Below, in pieces: positions 39,203-46,748 of a stretch of DNA of 46,748 bases. The stretch's first letter is position 1. Each line of letters starts with the position of its first letter. The notes below the pieces were generated by a model, which was given only the letters and a program-made list of their open reading frames with translations, did no database searches and had not been told where the DNA came from. The DNA comes from Sandaracinaceae bacterium (GTDB lineage Bacteria; Myxococcota_A; Polyangia; Polyangiales; Sandaracinaceae). The DNA lies in assembly GCA_044220955.1 (NCBI GenBank), contig JBGAQA010000050.1, positions 1-46,748 on the forward strand, in the 5' to 3' direction. The position numbers were made by a program, and so were the translations under genes.

Positions 39203-40694
39203 CCACGGCGTCCCGGCGGGCCCGCGCAGCGGCGGGGGCGAACAGCACGATGGCGTCGAAAGGCGCCGCGCCGCCCTCCGCGGGTGGGACGGAGGCCGCC
39301 GAGAGCGCCTCGGTCGCGCAGCGTCCGGACGCGCCGGTCGTGGTGATCGAGACCAGCCGTCCCGACTCGCTGACCGTCGCATGGACGCCGAGGACCTGGA
39401 CCCGAGGCGGCATGCACGCCGCGAGCGCATCGGCGGAGACCGCGCGGCGTACCGCGTGCTCGTCGACGGACCCGTCGTCGGACGTCGGGTCCACCTGCGT
39501 CGCCGCGACCTGCGTGCGCAGCGGCGCGGGGTCGTCTGGGAGGGGCGCCGCGAGGTGTGCCTGCGCGGCCGCTCGAAGCGCGGGGTCACGCGCGCTCGCT
39601 GCGCTCGCCGCCGCGATTCTCGCCAGCGCCGGGCCCACCCACGCGGCGGCGTCGGCGACGTCGAGCGCGAGCGTCTCCGATGGGCGCTGCGACAGCAGGC
39701 GCTGGCCGAGGGTCACCCCCGAGAGGCACGTCGCCAGCCGCGCGGCGAGGTCGCTCGTCGCGGGCGGTGCGCCACACTGCCCGAGGCGCGCCACCGCGAC
39801 GAGCTGCGCGCGGTCGAGGAACCCCGCGTCGCAGGCGACGTGGCGCGCGCGGCAGCGAGAGGCCGACGCCAGAGCGTGCTCCACGAGCGCGTCCTCTTCC
39901 TCCGCGAGGCGGTAGATCTCCGCCTCCAGGACGTCGACGTCCTCGGTGAGCGCGTCGGGCCAGCGAGCGCGAATCGCCGCGCCGAGCTCCCGCCCGTGCT
40001 CGACCATCCCCGTCCCCGAGATCAGGCGCATCCAGCGGAGAGCCATCTCCCTGGACCAGGCTGCGTCCGGCAGCAGCGCGAGGCGCGCGGGCACGAAGCC
40101 GGGGTCCTCGAGGCCGTCGGCGTCCGCGTCCACGTCGGCGAGCATCAGCGCGAAGTGCGACGCGACGGCCTCCCGCAGCGCGGCGGCCGGGCGCGCCTCG
40201 AGGAGCTCCGCGTACAGGGTGCTCGCCGCCGCGTAGTCCAGCTGCCGCTGCGCCGATCGCGCGGCGCGGTAGAGCGCGACGGGACGCAGCGCGGTGACCC
40301 GGGCGAGCGCGGTGTAGAGGCGCTGCGCGTGCGCCAAGCCCTGCGCCGACCCGAGGTCGTAGAGCGCACCTGCCGGCGCGAGCAGCTCGGCCGTCGCGGA
40401 GCACCGGTCGAGCCCGCTGGGCCCGAGCGCGGACACGGCGGTCTGCACGTCGGGGCAGGCGCCGCCCGCGGCGGGCGTGCCGCCGCAGGCTCGGAGCAGC
40501 GTCGCCCCCGGGCAGGCGTCGGCGGGGGTCACGACCCAGTCCTCGATCGTGCGGGGTCGGGCGTAGTCCGTGTAGCCATCCACGAGGATCACACGAGGTC
40601 CCTGGGCGGCGGCATTCGCTGTCGTGAGCGCTGCGACCGCGCTCAGCGCGATCAGCGTGGCCGAGGCGGGCGGGCGCGTTCTTCCGGTCTTCAC
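39192..40694 (-). CDS. Secreted helical (TPR-like) hypothetical protein
   Basis: Signal peptide ANAAA|Q, Ala-rich helices, TonB-C/GltJ-like tail 'VSESGR...RCATEAL'. Start may be 40709. Confidence 0.55.
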   Translation of the reverse strand: MKTGRTRPPASATLIALSAVAALTTANAAAQGPRVILVDGYTDYARPRTIEDWVVTPADACPGATLLRACGGTPAAGGACPDVQTAVSALGPSGLDRCSATAELLAPAGALYDLGSAQGLAHAQRLYTALARVTALRPVALYRAARSAQRQLDYAAASTLYAELLEARPAAALREAVASHFALMLADVDADADGLEDPGFVPARLALLPDAAWSREMALRWMRLISGTGMVEHGRELGAAIRARWPDALTEDVDVLEAEIYRLAEEEDALVEHALASASRCRARHVACDAGFLDRAQLVAVARLGQCGAPPATSDLAARLATCLSGVTLGQRLLSQRPSETLALDVADAAAWVGPALARIAAASAASARDPALRAAAQAHLAAPLPDDPAPLRTQVAATQVDPTSDDGSVDEHAVRRAVSADALAACMPPRVQVLGVHATVSESGRLVSITTTGASGRCATEALSAASVPPAEGGAAPFDAIVLFAPAAARARRDAVVSP

Positions 40695-40742
40695 GCGCGG
40701 AGCGTACACGCTCGCCCTCCACCACGGCGCGCGATGCCGGTG

Positions 40743-41651
40743 TCAGCGCGCGAAGACGCTCGCCAGCGCTGGACCGAGCTCCGGGTACCGGAACGCGTAG
40801 CCGGTCGCGAGCGCGCGCGCGGGCACGACGCGGCGGCTCGCGAGCAGCTCGACCGCGAAGTCGCCGGTCGCGGCGCGGATGGCGAAGGCCGGCGCCGGCA
40901 TGAACGAGGGGCGCCGCATCGCGCGCCCGAGCGCACGCGCGTGATCGACCTGCCGCACGGGCTCCGGCGCCGTCGCGTTGATCGGCCCGTCGAGGTCGCC
41001 TCGGTCGAGCGCGAACGAGAGGATGCCCACCGCGTCCTCGAGGTGGATCCACGACCACCACTGCTGCCCGTCGCCGAGCGGTCCGCCGAAGCCCATCGCG
41101 AAGAGCGGGCGCATCGCCGCCAGGGCGCCTCCGTCACCCATCACGAGGCCCAGCCGCGTCGTCGCGACGCGCAGGCCGAGCGGGCGCGCCGCGTTCGCTG
41201 CAGCCTCCCACTTCACGCACACGCTCGAGAGGAAGTCGCCGCCCGCGCCGCTCGTCTCGTCGAGGATCTCGTCGCCACGATCGCCGTAGAAGCCGATCGC
41301 GCTCGCCGAGACCAGCGTGCGTGGGCGCTCGCCCGCAGGCATGGCGCCCATCGCGGCGACGATCGCCGCGGTCCCGCTCACGCGGCTCTGCTCGATCGCG
41401 GCCTTCTTCTTCGCGCTCCAGCGCCCCGACACCGGCTCGCCCGCGAGGTTCACGATCGCGCCGACGCCCTCGAGCGCGCGGGGATCGATCGTCCGGACGA
41501 AGGCGCTCGCAGCGGGGAGCGCCTGCTTGGCCCGCTCCGGGCTGCGCGAGTACACCACGACGCGATCGCCGCGGGCCGCGAGCGCGCCGACCAGGGCGCT
41601 GCCGACGAACCCCGTGGCGCCGGTGACGAGGACGGTTCGAGGCGTGGCCAC
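40743..41651 (-). CDS. TIGR01777-type NAD-dependent epimerase-family oxidoreductase (YfcH-like)
   Basis: TGATGFVG, VNLAGE, SASAIGFYG, 'GDGQQWWSWIH', 'GYAFRYP'. Confidence 0.92.
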   Translation of the reverse strand: MATPRTVLVTGATGFVGSALVGALAARGDRVVVYSRSPERAKQALPAASAFVRTIDPRALEGVGAIVNLAGEPVSGRWSAKKKAAIEQSRVSGTAAIVAAMGAMPAGERPRTLVSASAIGFYGDRGDEILDETSGAGGDFLSSVCVKWEAAANAARPLGLRVATTRLGLVMGDGGALAAMRPLFAMGFGGPLGDGQQWWSWIHLEDAVGILSFALDRGDLDGPINATAPEPVRQVDHARALGRAMRRPSFMPAPAFAIRAATGDFAVELLASRRVVPARALATGYAFRYPELGPALASVFAR

Positions 41652-41709
41652 CGCGGGTCCATCTGGGGCGCCTTTCCTCGCGCGTCAACCGGAGTACGAT
41701 GGCCGCCTC

Positions 41710-42366
41710 ATGCAGTTCTTCTCCGTGGGCCAGCAGGCCGAGGGCTTCATCGCGATCGGTCAGGAAGCGACGGGCGTCATCGCGATCGGGCAGATGGCGA
41801 CCGGCGTGATCGCGATCGGGCAGCTCGCCCGGGGTGTCTTCACCGTCGGCATGCTCTCGGTCGGGATCGTCAGCGTCGGGATGCTCTCCCTCGGCCTGGT
41901 GCACTGCGTCTCCATGCTGGGTGCGGGCGGGCGCGGCACGGGCGGCGTGCTGCCGCTCTGTCCGAAGCTGCCGCTGCCCGTGCAGCTGCCCGAGCTCACG
42001 CCGCGCGATCAGCTCGAGGCGGGCCGCGCATCCGGCTGGATCCGCGTCCAGGTCCAGCGCGCCGCCGCGGGGGTCGCGCTCGTCGCCGACGGTCGGCCGC
42101 TGGCCGTCCGGCTGGGGCCCTCGATGCTCTCGGCCGCGGCGCAGGCGATGGTGGCCGGGGGCGCGGCGCTCGCGCACGTCGTCCCCGCGGGGCAGGGCGC
42201 CGAGGTCACGCGGATGATGCGCGTGCCCACGGCCTCGTGGCGCAACCCGCAGTACCTCGGCGTCTGCGCGCTGCAGCTCGGCGGCCTCGCGATCGCGTCT
42301 GCCGCGTACTTCTGGTTCGGGCTGACTCCGGTCGTCGACGGCGTCCTCGCGCTCACCAAGGAGTGA
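41710..42366 (+). CDS. Membrane protein with N-terminal Gly-rich 10-aa repeats
   Basis: GFIAIGQEAT/GVIAIGQMAT/GVIAIGQLAR repeats and a C-terminal TM. Confidence 0.75.
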   Translation: MQFFSVGQQAEGFIAIGQEATGVIAIGQMATGVIAIGQLARGVFTVGMLSVGIVSVGMLSLGLVHCVSMLGAGGRGTGGVLPLCPKLPLPVQLPELTPRDQLEAGRASGWIRVQVQRAAAGVALVADGRPLAVRLGPSMLSAAAQAMVAGGAALAHVVPAGQGAEVTRMMRVPTASWRNPQYLGVCALQLGGLAIASAAYFWFGLTPVVDGVLALTKE

Positions 42367-43067
42367 AGCCCGTGGCAGACCGCGCGCGCATCGTGCTGGT
42401 CCGGCACGGTCAGGCATCGGCCCTGGGCGACTACGATCGGCTCTCGGACCTCGGTCGTGAGCAGTCCCGCCTGCTCGGAGCGCACTTCGAGCGCTTCGGC
42501 CTCGCGCCCGATCGCGTGCTGGTCGGTCCGCGACGGCGACACGCCGAGACGCACGCCGAGGTCCGCGCGCCGTCGTGGAGCGAGCCGGAGGAGGTCCCCG
42601 AGCTCGACGAGCACCATGCGGTGCAGCTCCTCGTGGCGCTCGGGCCGGCGCTCGCTGCGCGAGACGACGAGCTCGGCCGCGTGGCCCGCGAGGCCTTCGG
42701 CGGCGATCACGGCTCGATGCGGAAGGCGATGACCCGCGTCTTCGCGGCGATCATCCCGGCGTGGGCGCGCGGCGAGGTCACCCACCCGGACGTCGAGCCC
42801 TTCGAGGCGTTTCGCGCGCGCGTCCGGCGCTTCGTCGATCGCATGCGGCAGAGCGAGGGCACCAGCGTCGCCTTCACGTCGGGCGGGGCCATCTCGGCGA
42901 TCGTCGCGGAGGCGCACGGGCTCTCGGTGGAGCAGCTGCTCGACGTGATGTGGCACGTGCGCAACGCGTCGATCACCGAGCTCGTGGTGCGCGACGGGCG
43001 CCTCTCGATCGCGAGCATGAACGCGACGCCGCACCTCGGAGAGCCGCGCCTCGTCACCGGCGTGTGA
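42363..43067 (+). CDS. Histidine phosphatase family protein
   Basis: RHGQ motif, 'YDRLSDLG..Q', 'FTSGG', 'N.TPHL'. Confidence 0.9.
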   Translation: MKPVADRARIVLVRHGQASALGDYDRLSDLGREQSRLLGAHFERFGLAPDRVLVGPRRRHAETHAEVRAPSWSEPEEVPELDEHHAVQLLVALGPALAARDDELGRVAREAFGGDHGSMRKAMTRVFAAIIPAWARGEVTHPDVEPFEAFRARVRRFVDRMRQSEGTSVAFTSGGAISAIVAEAHGLSVEQLLDVMWHVRNASITELVVRDGRLSIASMNATPHLGEPRLVTGV

Positions 43068-43079
43068 GCGGCGCGCCCG

Positions 43080-44099
43080 TCACGGCCGGCGGTCGTGGGG
43101 ATCTCTCGCGAGCGCCTCGGCGACCTCGAGCGCGGCGTACGTCAGCACGGCGTCGGCCCCGGCACGCTTGAAGCCGACGAGCGACTCCACGATCACGCGC
43201 GGCCAGTCGAGCCACCCGCGCTCGGCGCTCGCGCGCAGCATCGAGTACTCGCCGGACACCTGGTACACGAGGGTCGGCAGGCCGAACGCCTCCTTCACGC
43301 GCCACACCAGATCGAGGTAGGGCATCCCCGGCTTGATCATCACCATGTCGGCGCCCTCGGCGACGTCGAGCGCGACCTCCCGAAGCGCCTCGTCGCCGTT
43401 GGCGGGATCCATCTGGTAGGTGCGCTTGTCCCCCTGCCCGAGCGCGGTCTTGCTGCCGACGGCCTCGCGGAAGGGACCGTAGAACGCCGAGGCGTACTTC
43501 GCCGCGTACGAGAGGATGCGGACGCGCTCGTGGCCGGCCGCGTCGAGGGCTGCCCGCACCGCGCCGACCCGTCCGTCCATCATGTCGGAGGGCGCGATGA
43601 CGTCGCAGCCGGCCTTCGCCTGCACGACCGCCTGGCGGCAGAGGACGGCCACGGTCTCGTCGTTGACGACGTACCCGCCACGCACGAGCCCGTCCTGGCC
43701 GTGCGAGGTGAAGGGGTCGAGCGCGACGTCGCAGATCACGCCCAGGCCGGGGCAGGCCTTCTTCACCTCGCGCACGGCACGGCAGACGAGGTTGTCATCG
43801 TCCGTGGCGAGCTCGCCGTCGGGCGTCTTGAGCGAAGGATCGATCACCGGGAACACGGCGACGGCCGGGATGCCCGCGGCCTCGGCGGCGCGCGCGTGCT
43901 CGACGAGGTGGGCGAGCGAGAGGCGGCTCACCCCGGGCATCGAGGCGATCGCCTCGTCGGCCGCGCCCTCCTTCACGAAGAGAGGCCAGATCAAGTCGGA
44001 GGGCGTGAGCACGTGCTCGCGCGAGAGCCGGCGGCTCCACCCATCGCGCCGCATCCGGCGCATCCGGGTCGTCGGAAACGAACCGAGCCAGCTCTTCAT
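43080..44099 (-). CDS. hemB: Porphobilinogen synthase (Asp-rich, non-Zn type)
   Basis: DVALDPFTSHGQDG, APSDMMDGRV, YASAFYGPFR, MIKPG, YQVSGEY. Confidence 0.98.
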   Translation of the reverse strand: MKSWLGSFPTTRMRRMRRDGWSRRLSREHVLTPSDLIWPLFVKEGAADEAIASMPGVSRLSLAHLVEHARAAEAAGIPAVAVFPVIDPSLKTPDGELATDDDNLVCRAVREVKKACPGLGVICDVALDPFTSHGQDGLVRGGYVVNDETVAVLCRQAVVQAKAGCDVIAPSDMMDGRVGAVRAALDAAGHERVRILSYAAKYASAFYGPFREAVGSKTALGQGDKRTYQMDPANGDEALREVALDVAEGADMVMIKPGMPYLDLVWRVKEAFGLPTLVYQVSGEYSMLRASAERGWLDWPRVIVESLVGFKRAGADAVLTYAALEVAEALARDPHDRRP

Positions 44100-44803
44100 C
44101 GCGAGCCTCCGTCTTCGGGAAGGGGATCGAAGGGAAGGGTGCCGAATTCGTCGAGCAGCACGCGGACCACGTCGCGCTGCATCTCGATCCGGCGCGGCTC
44201 CGGGAAGCCCATCCAGGTCTCGACGCAGATCCCGACGCAGCCGGTCGCCTCGACGATCACCTCGGTCGACGACGTGGCGACCGGGTAGTAGTGAGCCGCC
44301 CAGCGCTCGTCGTCGGAGCGGCGGAGCGCGTTCATGCGCTCGACGGCGCGCGCGACGACGGGGGGCATCGGCTCGACGCCGTAGACGAGCGTCTGGCCGA
44401 ACGAGGGCACGACGGCGGGATCGAAGCGCTTGGTCGACTCGTGCAGCGTGCAGACGAGCGCGGGACGCTCGTCGAGCACGAGATCCATGAACGTCCGGGC
44501 CAGGCGCCGCTCACGCTCGGGGGCGCGCGCGTCGCCCGGGAAGCAGCGGTTGAGATCGAGCCCGCCCGGGGCCGCTCGCTGGCGCGCACGATACGCGGGC
44601 GCGTTCATCACGGGTACGACGAGGAGGCGCCCGCGCGCGGGCACGAGGCCCTCCTCGAGAAGCTCCGAGAGCGCATGGACGCCCGCGACCTCGTCCCCGT
44701 GGATGCCGGCCTGCATCAGCACGGTGGGGCCGGGCTCGCCGGCCTCGAGCACGTGGAGCGCGACGGTCGGCGTGAGCCAGTGGGTGCCCGCGGAGCGCGT
44801 CAT
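44096..44803 (-). CDS. Succinylglutamate desuccinylase/aspartoacylase (M14-like) family protein
   Basis: AGIHGDE, DLNRCFPG, TLHES, terminal 'VET'. Start may be 44854. Confidence 0.85.
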   Translation of the reverse strand: MTRSAGTHWLTPTVALHVLEAGEPGPTVLMQAGIHGDEVAGVHALSELLEEGLVPARGRLLVVPVMNAPAYRARQRAAPGGLDLNRCFPGDARAPERERRLARTFMDLVLDERPALVCTLHESTKRFDPAVVPSFGQTLVYGVEPMPPVVARAVERMNALRRSDDERWAAHYYPVATSSTEVIVEATGCVGICVETWMGFPEPRRIEMQRDVVRVLLDEFGTLPFDPLPEDGGSR

Positions 44804-44862
44804 CGGCGGCGATGGTAGCCGTGTCGGCTTGCGCGCGCCCGTCCTCGTCGTCATGCCGGGGG

Positions 44863-45336
44863 ATGGCCGCCCCGCCCTCCAAGATCTCGCTCGCGACGCT
44901 CGCCGGCGGCGTCGAGGTGGGGAGCGCGCCGTCGATCGACGCAGCGCGCGAGGCGATGGGTGGGCGCGTCTGTACCGAGCGCGGCGCGGGCGCGGCCGTG
45001 ATCGTGGCGATGAAGCGCGGGGCCGACGCGCGCGGCGTCGTCGTGTGCGTGTCCGGCCCCTCCCGCGACGTGTGGATCGGCGAGGGCCGCTTCGTCCGTA
45101 CGACCGTCGACCGGCTCGCGGCGCTGGCGGAACCGGGTCCGGAGCTCGACGCGGTCGCCGACGATGCACGCCGCTTCGCCGCGCTGCGCGAGGGCCAGCC
45201 GGTGCGGGCACTGCGGCGCGACGGCACGGGTCTGGCCGGGGTGCTGCTCGAGAAGTGCCGCTACGGCGCCCTGGTCGGTCAGGGCAGCGTGGTGATCGCG
45301 GTCAGCTTCCGGAAGGTGATCGCGGCGCCTTCGTAG
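44863..45336 (+). CDS. Hypothetical protein with possible tandem SH3-like domains
   Basis: High GC3 ORF. 'GQPVRAL...AGVLLEKCRYGALV' resembles an SH3-like barrel. Confidence 0.6.
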   Translation: MAAPPSKISLATLAGGVEVGSAPSIDAAREAMGGRVCTERGAGAAVIVAMKRGADARGVVVCVSGPSRDVWIGEGRFVRTTVDRLAALAEPGPELDAVADDARRFAALREGQPVRALRRDGTGLAGVLLEKCRYGALVGQGSVVIAVSFRKVIAAPS

Positions 45337-45432
45337 CGAGGGCGAGAGCGAGAGCGAGAGCGAGAGCGAGAGCGAGAGCGAGGTCGAGGTCGAGGTCGAG
45401 AGCGAGGTCGAGGGCGAGGGTGAGGGCGAGGA
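45337..45432. repeat. Hexamer tandem array (CGAGAG/CGAGGT/CGAGGG), 16 units
   Basis: Directly read. Begins immediately after the TAG at 45336. Confidence 0.95.
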
Positions 45433-45455
45433 TCCGAGCTCCGAGGTCGCATCGG

Positions 45456-45688
45456 GGTGTGCGCTCTGCTCGGGGATCCTCATCTTGCCCGCGGGCTTGT
45501 CGCGTTCAACCCCGGCACTTCGTGCCGCCGGTGCTCGCTTCCTCCGCGACCGCATTCGCGGTCGCTCCGTGCAGCTCCGCTCCGGGAGGTTCTGCATTTG
45601 CAGAACCTCGGGTTGAGCGCGCCTGCGACCCGCGGGGGGTGGGGCTGCGCCCCGAGCAGGTCGGGGCACCAGCACGGAGAAGAAGCTC
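45456..45688 (+). ncRNA. Candidate structured leader element, copy 1
   Basis: Nested stems 45466-74/45651-59 and 45501-12/45610-21, with internal hairpins. Architecture is shared with copy 2. Confidence 0.55.
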
Positions 45689-46003
45689 ATGCTCGACATC
45701 TACATCGTCTCGATTCAGCTCTGCCGCGACGTGCGCGTGATCGGTGAACGCGTTGGCCGGCACGACCGGAACTTGCTCGACCAGCTACGGAGGGCCGCCA
45801 GCAGCGTGCCGCTCAACCTGGCGGAGAGCGACGGCGTCCAGGGCGGGAACCGTCGGCAGCGGCGCCTGACCGCGCTCGGCTCGGCGCGCGAGGTCGGCGC
45901 CTGTCTCGACGTGGCCGAGGCGCTCGGGTACGGGAGCGTGGACGTCGGCGTGAGGCACCGGCTCGACCACGTCATCGGTGTGCTCGTGAAGCTGACGCGG
46001 TAG
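45689..46003 (+). CDS. Four helix bundle protein (23S rRNA IVP/bAvd-like)
   Basis: 'L.DQLRRAASSVPLNLAE', 'ALGSARE...CLDVA.ALGY'. GGAGA RBS. 104 aa. Confidence 0.92.
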   Translation: MLDIYIVSIQLCRDVRVIGERVGRHDRNLLDQLRRAASSVPLNLAESDGVQGGNRRQRRLTALGSAREVGACLDVAEALGYGSVDVGVRHRLDHVIGVLVKLTR

Positions 46004-46010
46004 GAGAGCC

Positions 46011-46043
46011 ACGAGGCCCGCGGTTCATCGCCGCGGGCCTCGT
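46011..46043. terminator. 13-bp hairpin between the convergent four-helix-bundle genes
   Basis: ACGAGGCCCGCGG-TTCATCG-CCGCGGGCCTCGT. No U-tract. Confidence 0.6.
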
Positions 46044-46048
46044 CCAGC

Positions 46049-46363
46049 TCAGTGCAGCCGGTTCAGCGTCCGCGCGATGCGGTCGAGCGTGTCGATCATC
46101 CGCGCGTCCGCCGTGATGTGCCCGAGCGCATCCGCGGTCTCGATGCAGGCGCGGACCTCGTTGGCGCTGCCCATCGCCGTCTGGAACCTCATCCGCGCGT
46201 TTCCGTTCTTGCGCCCCTCGCCCTCGGCGATGTTGAGCGTGATGCTGGTGAGCGCTCGCCGCGTCTGCCGAGCCAGGTCGGCGTCCTGCTTGGCAATCGC
46301 ATCGAGCGTGGTCCGCATCTCGCGAATCATCTGGAGCGAGTCGGTGTAGATCTTCAGTGCCAC
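46049..46363 (-). CDS. Four helix bundle protein (23S rRNA IVP/bAvd-like)
   Basis: 'LARQTRRALTSITLNIAEG', 'RF.TAMGSANE...C'. GTG at 46363 gives 104 aa, colinear with the other copy. Confidence 0.92.
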   Translation of the reverse strand: MALKIYTDSLQMIREMRTTLDAIAKQDADLARQTRRALTSITLNIAEGEGRKNGNARMRFQTAMGSANEVRACIETADALGHITADARMIDTLDRIARTLNRLH

Positions 46364-46670
46364 GTTGTCCGTTCCGTTCTGCCCGTTCGGGGGCACCACC
46401 CCACCGCCGTCGCGCGGAGCGGCAGTCCACCCTCGCCTCGACACGGCCTATAGCCAACTGGCTATAGGCCTGGTCGAGAGCGACCGCCCGGAGCAGCGCG
46501 GAGCCGCGCGCAGCCGCTGTTTGGCGAGCACGGCGAGCACTGCGAGGACGGCGAGCCCGAAGGGCTCGGGGTGGAGTGCCGCGAGCACGACGGCACACTG
46601 CCCATCCCCCGAACGAGCCCCGTGCTCCTGACGTCATCCAAGGCGAATCCCCGAAGGGGAGAGCCGTGGT
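46364..46670 (-). ncRNA. Candidate structured leader element, copy 2
   Basis: Nested stems 46381-93/46606-18 and 46426-32/46569-75, palindrome 46445-70, and a cUUCGg hairpin 46648-60. Confidence 0.55.
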
Positions 46671-46675
46671 CAGAG

Positions 46676-46748
46676 CGAGGTCGAGGTCGAGGTCGAGGTC
46701 GAGGTCGAGGTCGAGGTCGAGGTCGAGGTCGAGGTCGAGGTCGAGGTC
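46676..46748. repeat. (CGAGGT)12+ tandem array running off the window end
   Basis: Directly read, perfect units. Confidence 0.97.

Follow-up and report, generated by a model that had tools for sequence, protein, structure and literature searches.

The leaders of two convergent four-helix-bundle genes at the end of a Sandaracinaceae contig probably each constitute, judging from sequence and predicted pairing, a fold-back single-stranded DNA (ssDNA) promoter that drives the adjacent gene within a repeat-flanked, mobile-looking cassette. The cassette occupies the right end of the window, by which we mean the whole stretch of 46,748 nucleotides that was analyzed, and its features are collected in Table 1.

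Table 1. Features of the Cassette and Its Left Flank, in Window Positions, with Promoter Boxes Given as Putative Assignments
Feature	Position	Strand	Evidence or remark
Gene taken to be porphobilinogen synthase (hemB)-like	43080-44099	-	
Gene taken to be succinylglutamate desuccinylase/aspartoacylase-like	44096-44803	-	
Left hexamer microsatellite, units NNCGAG	45337-45431		sequence; directly follows the stop codon of the gene at 44812-45336
Conserved cassette end motif, copy-1 side	45432-45463	+	matches on contigs C241, C282, C13, and C120 of the source genome
Copy 1 fold-back element, candidate ssDNA promoter aimed at gene 1	45464-45663	-	formed by the minus strand
Copy 1 putative -10 box CAAGAT, -11A and -7T in bubble	45482-45487	-	columns invariant or nearly so in structure-blind alignment
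Copy 1 putative -35 box TTGAAC	45504-45509	-	paired with 45612-45617; inner stem of the sequence-only reading
Copy 1 mini-hairpin, C-GAA-G triloop (TTC on the sense strand)	45514-45526	-	sequence; triloop census
Copy 1 putative template arm: C-rich strand opposite the -10 bubble, then downstream duplex	45637-45659	-	pairing profile
Gene 1, four-helix-bundle protein, 104 aa	45689-46003	+	PF05635, TIGR02436
GC-rich hairpin common to both convergent genes	46013-46041		sequence; recurs on C159, C5, C28, C53, and C36
Gene 2, four-helix-bundle protein, about 104 aa, GTG start	46049-46363	-	41% identical to protein 1
Copy 2 fold-back element, candidate ssDNA promoter aimed at gene 2	46381-46620	+	formed by the plus strand
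Copy 2 mini-hairpin, C-GAA-G triloop	46553-46567	+	sequence; triloop census
Copy 2 putative -35 box TGGAGT	46572-46577	+	paired with arm at about 46424-46429
Copy 2 putative -10 box CACACT, in bubble	46594-46599	+	sequence
End hairpin, copy-2 side, C-GAA-G loop, G-A mismatches	46642-46665	+	C247, C159, C5, C117
Right hexamer microsatellite	46673-46748		sequence; reaches the contig end

The repeating unit comprises a hexamer repeat, a leader, a gene, and a terminator, and often occurs as a convergent pair. The GC-rich hairpin between the two genes is a probable bidirectional terminator, which is not scored by a standard terminator scan because it has no U-tract; the standard promoter/terminator scan of the window returned 0 sites. 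Gene 2 starts with GTG here and with ATG in sister copies. The end hairpin on the copy-2 side is found in the source genome at cassette ends only.

The Leaders Contain a Covarying Structured Element

The sequence-only reading had described the two upstream regions as copies of a conserved, covarying structured element. All of the stretches that it quoted with coordinates (10/10) read as it had stated, and the outer stem, inner stem, TTC hairpin, and long hairpin were reproduced in sense-strand folds of both copies. The folds are stronger than those of shuffled sequences (z -6.7 for copy 1 and -8.6 for copy 2; 0/200 shuffles as good), and the two leaders are identical at 137 of 239 aligned columns.

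For a wider comparison, 127 gene matches, from fetched loci and 15 contigs of the source genome, yielded 110 with a usable, distinct upstream region. Leaders were chosen by stem pairing alone, blind to the -10 region, which retained 64 of the 110, 33 of them non-redundant and drawn from 17 genomes; the leaders are related to each other, and the counts given below do not come from independent lineages. In a structure-blind MAFFT alignment of 34 leaders, the proposed covariation was borne out, with changes on both sides in 20 of the 24 pairs tested, which comprise 18 RNAalifold pairs (16 of them with changes on both sides) and six inner-stem pairs added by hand. Pairing cells amount to 83.7% in this alignment, versus 60.8% when shuffled and 30%-45% with partners slid, and the covariation score of these 34 mutually related leaders was reached by 0/500 shuffles.

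The outer arms are conserved, while the interior consists of a variable set of branches, and leaders differ freely in the length of the inner branches and of the long hairpin. A GTGCTCG motif is general (27/33 non-redundant leaders), as is the G-run in the 3' arm that the sequence-only reading had listed (28/33). The 16-mer that it listed as another part of the element is a local feature, present in 2/33. The element had not been recognized as a described family, and searching Rfam with an E cutoff of 1 gave nothing in either leader; the window holds two chance snoRNA matches to Rfam, both outside the leaders.

The expected recurrence upstream of homologs was found, the element preceding PF05635 genes in Sandaracinus-like myxobacteria. 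A covariance model of the leader recovered copy 1 and five leaders outside the training set at E <0.001, missed copy 2 of the window with default filters, and gave no match at the two Y1-transposase loci or the three reverse-transcriptase (RT) loci searched. A genome-wide pattern scan of the source genome gave 30 matches, compared with 9 in a reversed-sequence control; the top 8 of the 30 all precede four-helix-bundle genes and the remainder score near background, so that by this one pattern scan in one genome the element occurs only before four-helix-bundle genes. The element is thus real and covarying, and it travels with the four-helix-bundle gene.

Other leader types also precede PF05635 genes. 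A second class, in genomes G028, G150, and G184 (loci L019, L083-L086, L152, L154, and L185-L190), has different conserved words and a similar stem-bubble-stem shape, and may suit another sigma factor. A third class, in G032 and G084 (L087-L089, L149, and L195), is one long near-perfect hairpin that includes the ribosome-binding site and sits directly after the hexamer repeat.

Strand Asymmetries of the Element

Covariation is blind to strand, and strand asymmetries were therefore examined instead. GNA triloops closed by at least four pairs number 54 on the antisense strand versus 6 on the sense strand, against a genomic background of 432 versus 484. According to PMC13037366, only GNA triloops form extra-stable DNA mini-hairpins, the RNA counterpart being far less stable. 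A recurring internal loop is GA opposite GNA on the antisense strand (24/33 leaders). The TTC loops singled out in the sequence-only reading would on this assignment be GAA DNA triloops on the antisense strand, its GGTGGGG would be the strand facing a -10 bubble, and the conserved unpaired letters can be read as parts of -35 and -10 boxes on the opposite strand.

Other counts divide between the strands. One spacer pair, a conserved A-C on the antisense strand that is U-G on the sense strand (24/34 leaders), favors the sense strand. Isolated mismatches on the antisense strand comprise 42 A-C/C-A versus 16 G-T/T-G; without the conserved spacer pair and the bubble, a hand count on an arm-to-arm alignment gives 5 versus 16, which favors the antisense strand. 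The wobble tally is about even in a MAFFT-based table. Minimum free energy favors the sense strand in 20/33 leaders with DNA parameters and in 26/33 with RNA parameters, and the DNA fold of the copy 1 antisense strand leaves the outer stem unclosed. In the single RNA run, which consists of contigs only, the pieces listed lie on the 3' end of gene 1, on the upstream gene, and on the repeat; the leaders have no depth in it, a result that bears on transcription neither way.

Promoter-Like Geometry on the Antisense Strand

Read on the antisense strand, the inner stem of the sequence-only reading is a paired TTGAC-like word, a candidate -35 box. In 29/33 non-redundant leaders, the paired -35 pentamer is followed at 18-20 nt by the motif A-N-N-N-T, as compared with 0/33 after the equivalent word on the other arm and 105/2424 background windows; 5/1500 random genomic pieces passed the structure filter, none of them with A-N-N-N-T. 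The four leaders without the motif retain a comparable box, with a slight displacement or without the T. Among held-out leaders from 22 other genomes of the phylum, 15/51 pass the filter and 14 of these 15 have the -10 box, with 11 of the 14 coming from a single genome; the 36/51 that fail include box-bearing near misses and many other leader types.

When leaders are aligned on the A as -11, pairing is 72%-100% at most positions from -37 to -12 (the exceptions being -29, -22, and -19), 7% at -11, low to mixed across the bubble, and 83%-100% at +1 to +5; the strand facing the -10 bubble is C-rich (198/304 bases). In sigma70 initiation, the -35 and -12 elements are read as duplex and positions -11 to -7 as single-stranded non-template DNA, -11A and -7T being most important and the bubble spanning -11 to +3 (PMC2613000). 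The break at -11 and the re-pairing near +1 are, by analogy, like those of an RNA-polymerase open complex. Among the template bases, those at -33 and -31 are contacted by sigma region 4 (PMC2613000). The arm in the template position has C at -33 in 64/64 leaders and G at -31 in 57/64, whereas the box-bearing arm keeps its own consensus at these positions in 50/64 and 51/64. The -35 conservation on the box arm is partly built in, since the anchor forced T at -35 and picked stems near a TTGAC-like word. Better conservation of the template arm than of the box arm is expected if sigma reads a folded hybrid and not ordinary double-stranded DNA (dsDNA). The template arm runs into the gene, which begins 27-99 nt after the predicted start.

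The box-bearing arm could also be read without folding. In dsDNA this antisense arm is a colinear -35/spacer/-10, and could be an ordinary outward-facing promoter from which antisense RNA would run across the end motif and hexamer repeat, with the stems having some other purpose. Such a promoter could supply repeat-bearing RNA, fitting the link between gene count and repeat load described below, and it is compatible with a fold-back ssDNA promoter. It gives no reason, however, for the partner arm to keep sigma-read template bases better than the promoter arm does, nor for unpairing exactly from -11, and the -10 boxes, both of which match the E. coli consensus at 3/6 positions in the window, are weak for melting dsDNA. 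We consider it quite unlikely as the explanation of the element.

If the element acted as RNA, the sense strand would be a structured leader arising by read-through or from a promoter further upstream, and would either bind the pentamer of the four-helix-bundle protein or control the translation of that protein, much as the RNA of a diversity-generating retroelement (DGR) does with Avd. The strong sense-strand folds, the conserved U-G pair, and the folding energies fit this account, as do the co-directional orientation of gene 1 and the upstream gene and the Avd-like protein fold, given that Avd works on DGR RNA (PMC6182149). It leaves unexplained the A and T at promoter spacing from a TTGAC-like stem, the opening of the bubble at -11, the template-arm conservation at -33/-31, and the 54:6 GNA asymmetry, and it has neither an Rfam match nor, in more than 4/33 leaders, a promoter-like -35/-10 site in the sense direction (29/33 in the antisense direction). 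It therefore seems unlikely to us. The sequence-only reading had allowed for either a structured RNA acting on or with the protein or a folded ssDNA; the evidence supports the folded ssDNA of a mobile-looking unit, and the sense RNA is the weaker reading.

Proposed Mechanism

In the fold-back promoter reading, the strand antisense to the gene, when unpaired, would fold back. Its distal arm would carry the -35 box and, after a spacer of 15-17 nt, a -10 box left unpaired in the non-template role; its proximal arm would serve as the template and lead on to the ribosome-binding site and then the gene. This pre-melted mimic of an open complex would be bound by host RNA polymerase with the primary sigma, yielding a short mRNA for the four-helix-bundle protein, with transcription of copy 1 predicted to start approximately 40 nt upstream of its ATG; second-strand synthesis could be primed by this RNA as well. 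The gene would be off in dsDNA because the boxes then face away from it, and in a convergent pair either single strand could express one gene. The proposal yields predictions about the timing of gene expression and the site of transcription initiation, offers a reason for the convergent pairs, and makes a long-unexplained family testable. A chromosomal, multicopy ssDNA promoter imitating the open complex between -11 and +1 would extend such promoters to a new setting and provide a natural ssDNA-triggered switch.

Comparison with Known Systems

The closest parallels are the Frpo/ssi elements, in which folding of the transferred strand restores -35 and -10 boxes and which are active in ssDNA and off in dsDNA (PMC9849209, PMC11541004). 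Three classes of ssDNA promoter have been distinguished, with starts mapped by 5' RACE in pESBL and with classes 2 and 3 conserved in F (PMC12672017); the ssi literature, including Masai and Arai 1997, is cited in these papers (PMC9849209, PMC11541004, PMC12672017), in the main texts of which ssDNA promoters are described for conjugative elements only. As in Frpo/ssi, the template strand of the cassette is predicted to fold into a stem-loop that rebuilds -35 and -10 boxes before the driven gene. The cassette boxes are weak relative to the E. coli consensus. The leader of the F plasmid antirestriction gene, which we identify from gene annotation and position as the klcA class 2 ssDNA promoter of PMC12672017, folds with its -35 box paired, 15 nt of spacer, a small -10 bubble, and duplex downstream. 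In contrast, the cassette is chromosomal and multicopy and lies outside any plasmid leading region, with chromosomal genes as neighbors; its bubble is larger and C-rich, and it has GNA-capped branches and GA/GNA internal loops. Its predicted promoter activity would drive one PF05635 gene, often as part of a convergent pair between hexamer repeats. The leader covariance model gave no match in F 54000-67000 (13 kb) at E up to 1. With a common layout, a different sequence, and a chromosomal setting, the element would work like Frpo without being a member of the described classes. A literature search of main texts, mostly open ones, found no description of the leader or the cassette.

The hairpin promoters of the phage N4 virion RNA polymerase likewise carry GNA-triloop hairpins on a single-stranded promoter, but are read by the phage's own T7-like polymerase (PMC13037366), whereas the cassette signature is of sigma70 type. 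GNA mini-hairpins also occur at the priming sites of phage G4 and ssiA (PMC13037366), and some relatives have palindromic repeats close by, as might be seen if the element were a single-strand origin or a REP-like signal serving a different enzyme (primase, PriA, or an HUH nuclease) with an incidental likeness to a promoter. The spacing and strand logic are those of sigma, however; in the source-genome pattern scan the element was found only before PF05635 genes, the covariance model had no match at the two Y1 or three RT loci searched, and PF01797 counts do not track gene counts (rho 0.09). We regard such a signal as very improbable.

REP/RAYT and IS200/IS605 systems have dispersed hairpins of ssDNA type that are intergenic and often in terminator positions. 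The cassette hairpins share these properties, but the cassette unit has no transposase, and two complete genomes that have 10 and 14 PF05635 genes yielded no PF01797. RAYT/Y1 was rejected as a partner of the cassette: no Y1 transposase was found in 5/17 cassette-rich genomes, the leader model misses the two Y1 loci, and the PF01797 counts are uncorrelated with those of the genes, as given above. At locus L047 (G012:C49:285265-286673), a Y1 transposase gene lies approximately 700 nt from a four-helix-bundle gene and is probably an insertion beside the cassette.

With respect to DGRs, the window protein has the fold of small chains of DGR complexes and is mildly basic; the cassette differs in having no adjacent RT, template repeat, or variable repeat, the RT loci being on other contigs. 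By sequence, three of the four RTs of the source genome (on C290, C263, C167, and C111) resemble those of group II introns, and the remaining one appears retron-like and has a long N-terminal extension; no cassette adjoins any of the four. An RT partner was not supported, since no RT was found in three genomes with 7-11 PF05635 genes (81%-97% complete).

The Four-Helix-Bundle Proteins

The family assignment of the proteins was confirmed by Pfam PF05635 and NCBIfam TIGR02436 matches above cut-off. The predicted structure (pLDDT 96) is a four-helix bundle, for which the closest structures are Xcc0516 (PDB 2gsc, TM-score 0.89) and BT_0352 (PDB 2rld). The Avd-like fold that the sequence-only reading had given for the family is also seen, in that the model matches, more weakly, small chains of DGR complexes (8ube_D, TM 0.74, 8% identity, E 0.53). 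Avd, which is homologous to PF05635 (PMC10053308), is a positively charged pentameric barrel (PMC6182149), and a pentameric barrel is known for both Xcc0516 and Avd (PMC6182149, PMC10053308). The window proteins are mildly basic, with net charges of +4 and +2, and 98/109 cassette proteins are net positive. A nucleic-acid-binding role would fit the proposed mechanism, with the protein binding the exposed single strand.

The nearest named relatives are from Sandaracinus and Polyangium. A search of a genome contig collection returned 2 loci, and protein 2 had no match in a plasmid collection (72,556 records) or a phage collection. The copies evolve under purifying selection, with dN/dS of 0.15-0.22 among four copies of gene 1 and 0.14-0.20 among four copies of gene 2 (0.14-0.22 in 12/12 pairs). 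The window proteins pass the family profile cut-offs and have the four-helix fold, but in contrast to the PF05635 ORFs of 23S rRNA intervening sequences, their genes are not in an rRNA gene and have their own leader, terminator, and repeat flanks; no rRNA match was found in window positions 40000-46748, and the cassette flanks are protein-coding.

Copy Number, Empty Sites, and Hexamer Repeats

Four-helix-bundle protein matches number 21 in the source genome and 1-32 in each of 26/41 related genomes, and convergent pairs, complete or damaged, are present on six contigs of the source genome. At the site of the C5 copy, the flanking genes lie 15-211 nt apart, with no cassette or hexamer tract, in 4/5 congeners, and are separated in the fifth. 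Neither a cassette nor a hexamer tract follows the ortholog of the gene to the left of the window cassette in 3/3 congeners examined, and the right flank of the C282 copy is empty in 4/4 congeners examined. The unit is thus mobile-looking, being multicopy and missing at orthologous sites in congeners, although the empty sites may alternatively reflect loss in the congeners. The sequence-only reading had suggested that the folded element might itself be the end of a mobile unit, which did not hold: the short end motifs, which are conserved and run into the hexamer tracts, and the tracts themselves lie outside the element. Neither a target duplication nor a mobilizing enzyme was identified for the cassette.

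In DNA runs, summed depth is about 100-460 over the cassette versus about 20-135 in most flank bins (run X1), and joints deleting parts of the cassette are present; no circle junction of the cassette is among the DNA-run rows listed. In G005, the gene after the left-flank ortholog shares 84% identity with the neighbor of a cassette remnant on C117; C117 is therefore probably the right flank of the window cassette or an allele. In this remnant (G000 C117:3546-3810) and in L136, part of gene 1 is joined to the copy-2 end hairpin, and metagenome contigs show internal deletions similar to that of the C117 remnant.

The PF05635 gene count is correlated with the genome-wide load of CG period-6 microsatellites (Spearman 0.79 across 41 genomes, kin not independent). 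Four or more genes are present in every one of the 16 genomes that reach 200 pattern windows, and the 15 genomes without genes have at most 135 pattern windows; two gene-rich genomes have <50. In the source genome (G000), 13/180 hexamer tracts touch a cassette. The tie between gene count and repeat load gives a handle on the origin of the hexamer repeats. A scheme that would extend the fold-back promoter to this tie makes the cassette a transposase-free mobile element with an ssDNA phase, in which polymerase would fire from the fold-back promoter on the released strand, make an Avd-like pentamer, prime the second strand, and seed or expand the hexamer microsatellites that these genomes contain by the hundred. 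We offer this tentatively and think it somewhat doubtful; if true, the PF05635 family would gain a function, and the abundance of intergenic hexamer repeats in some myxobacterial genomes would be explained.

Exposure on the lagging strand was rejected as a trigger, as it predicts head-on genes, and a hand count of the 13 closest genes in two complete genomes, with oriC assumed at dnaA, gave 10 co-directional and 3 head-on. Neither this count, nor the plasmid and phage collections, nor the Y1 searches pointed to a source of ssDNA for the proposed promoter, which counts against that reading. At the empty C5 site of two congeners (L115 and L116), one or two copies of a different short hairpin repeat with CTNCG-type motifs are present, which suggests a hotspot for small ssDNA-type elements. 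The pairs of the source genome are convergent; divergent cassette pairs with one common central hexamer tract occur at L008 and L067 (G010) and at L010 (G011). Heptamer as well as hexamer repeats flank some cassettes, as in the upstream regions of L009 and L017.
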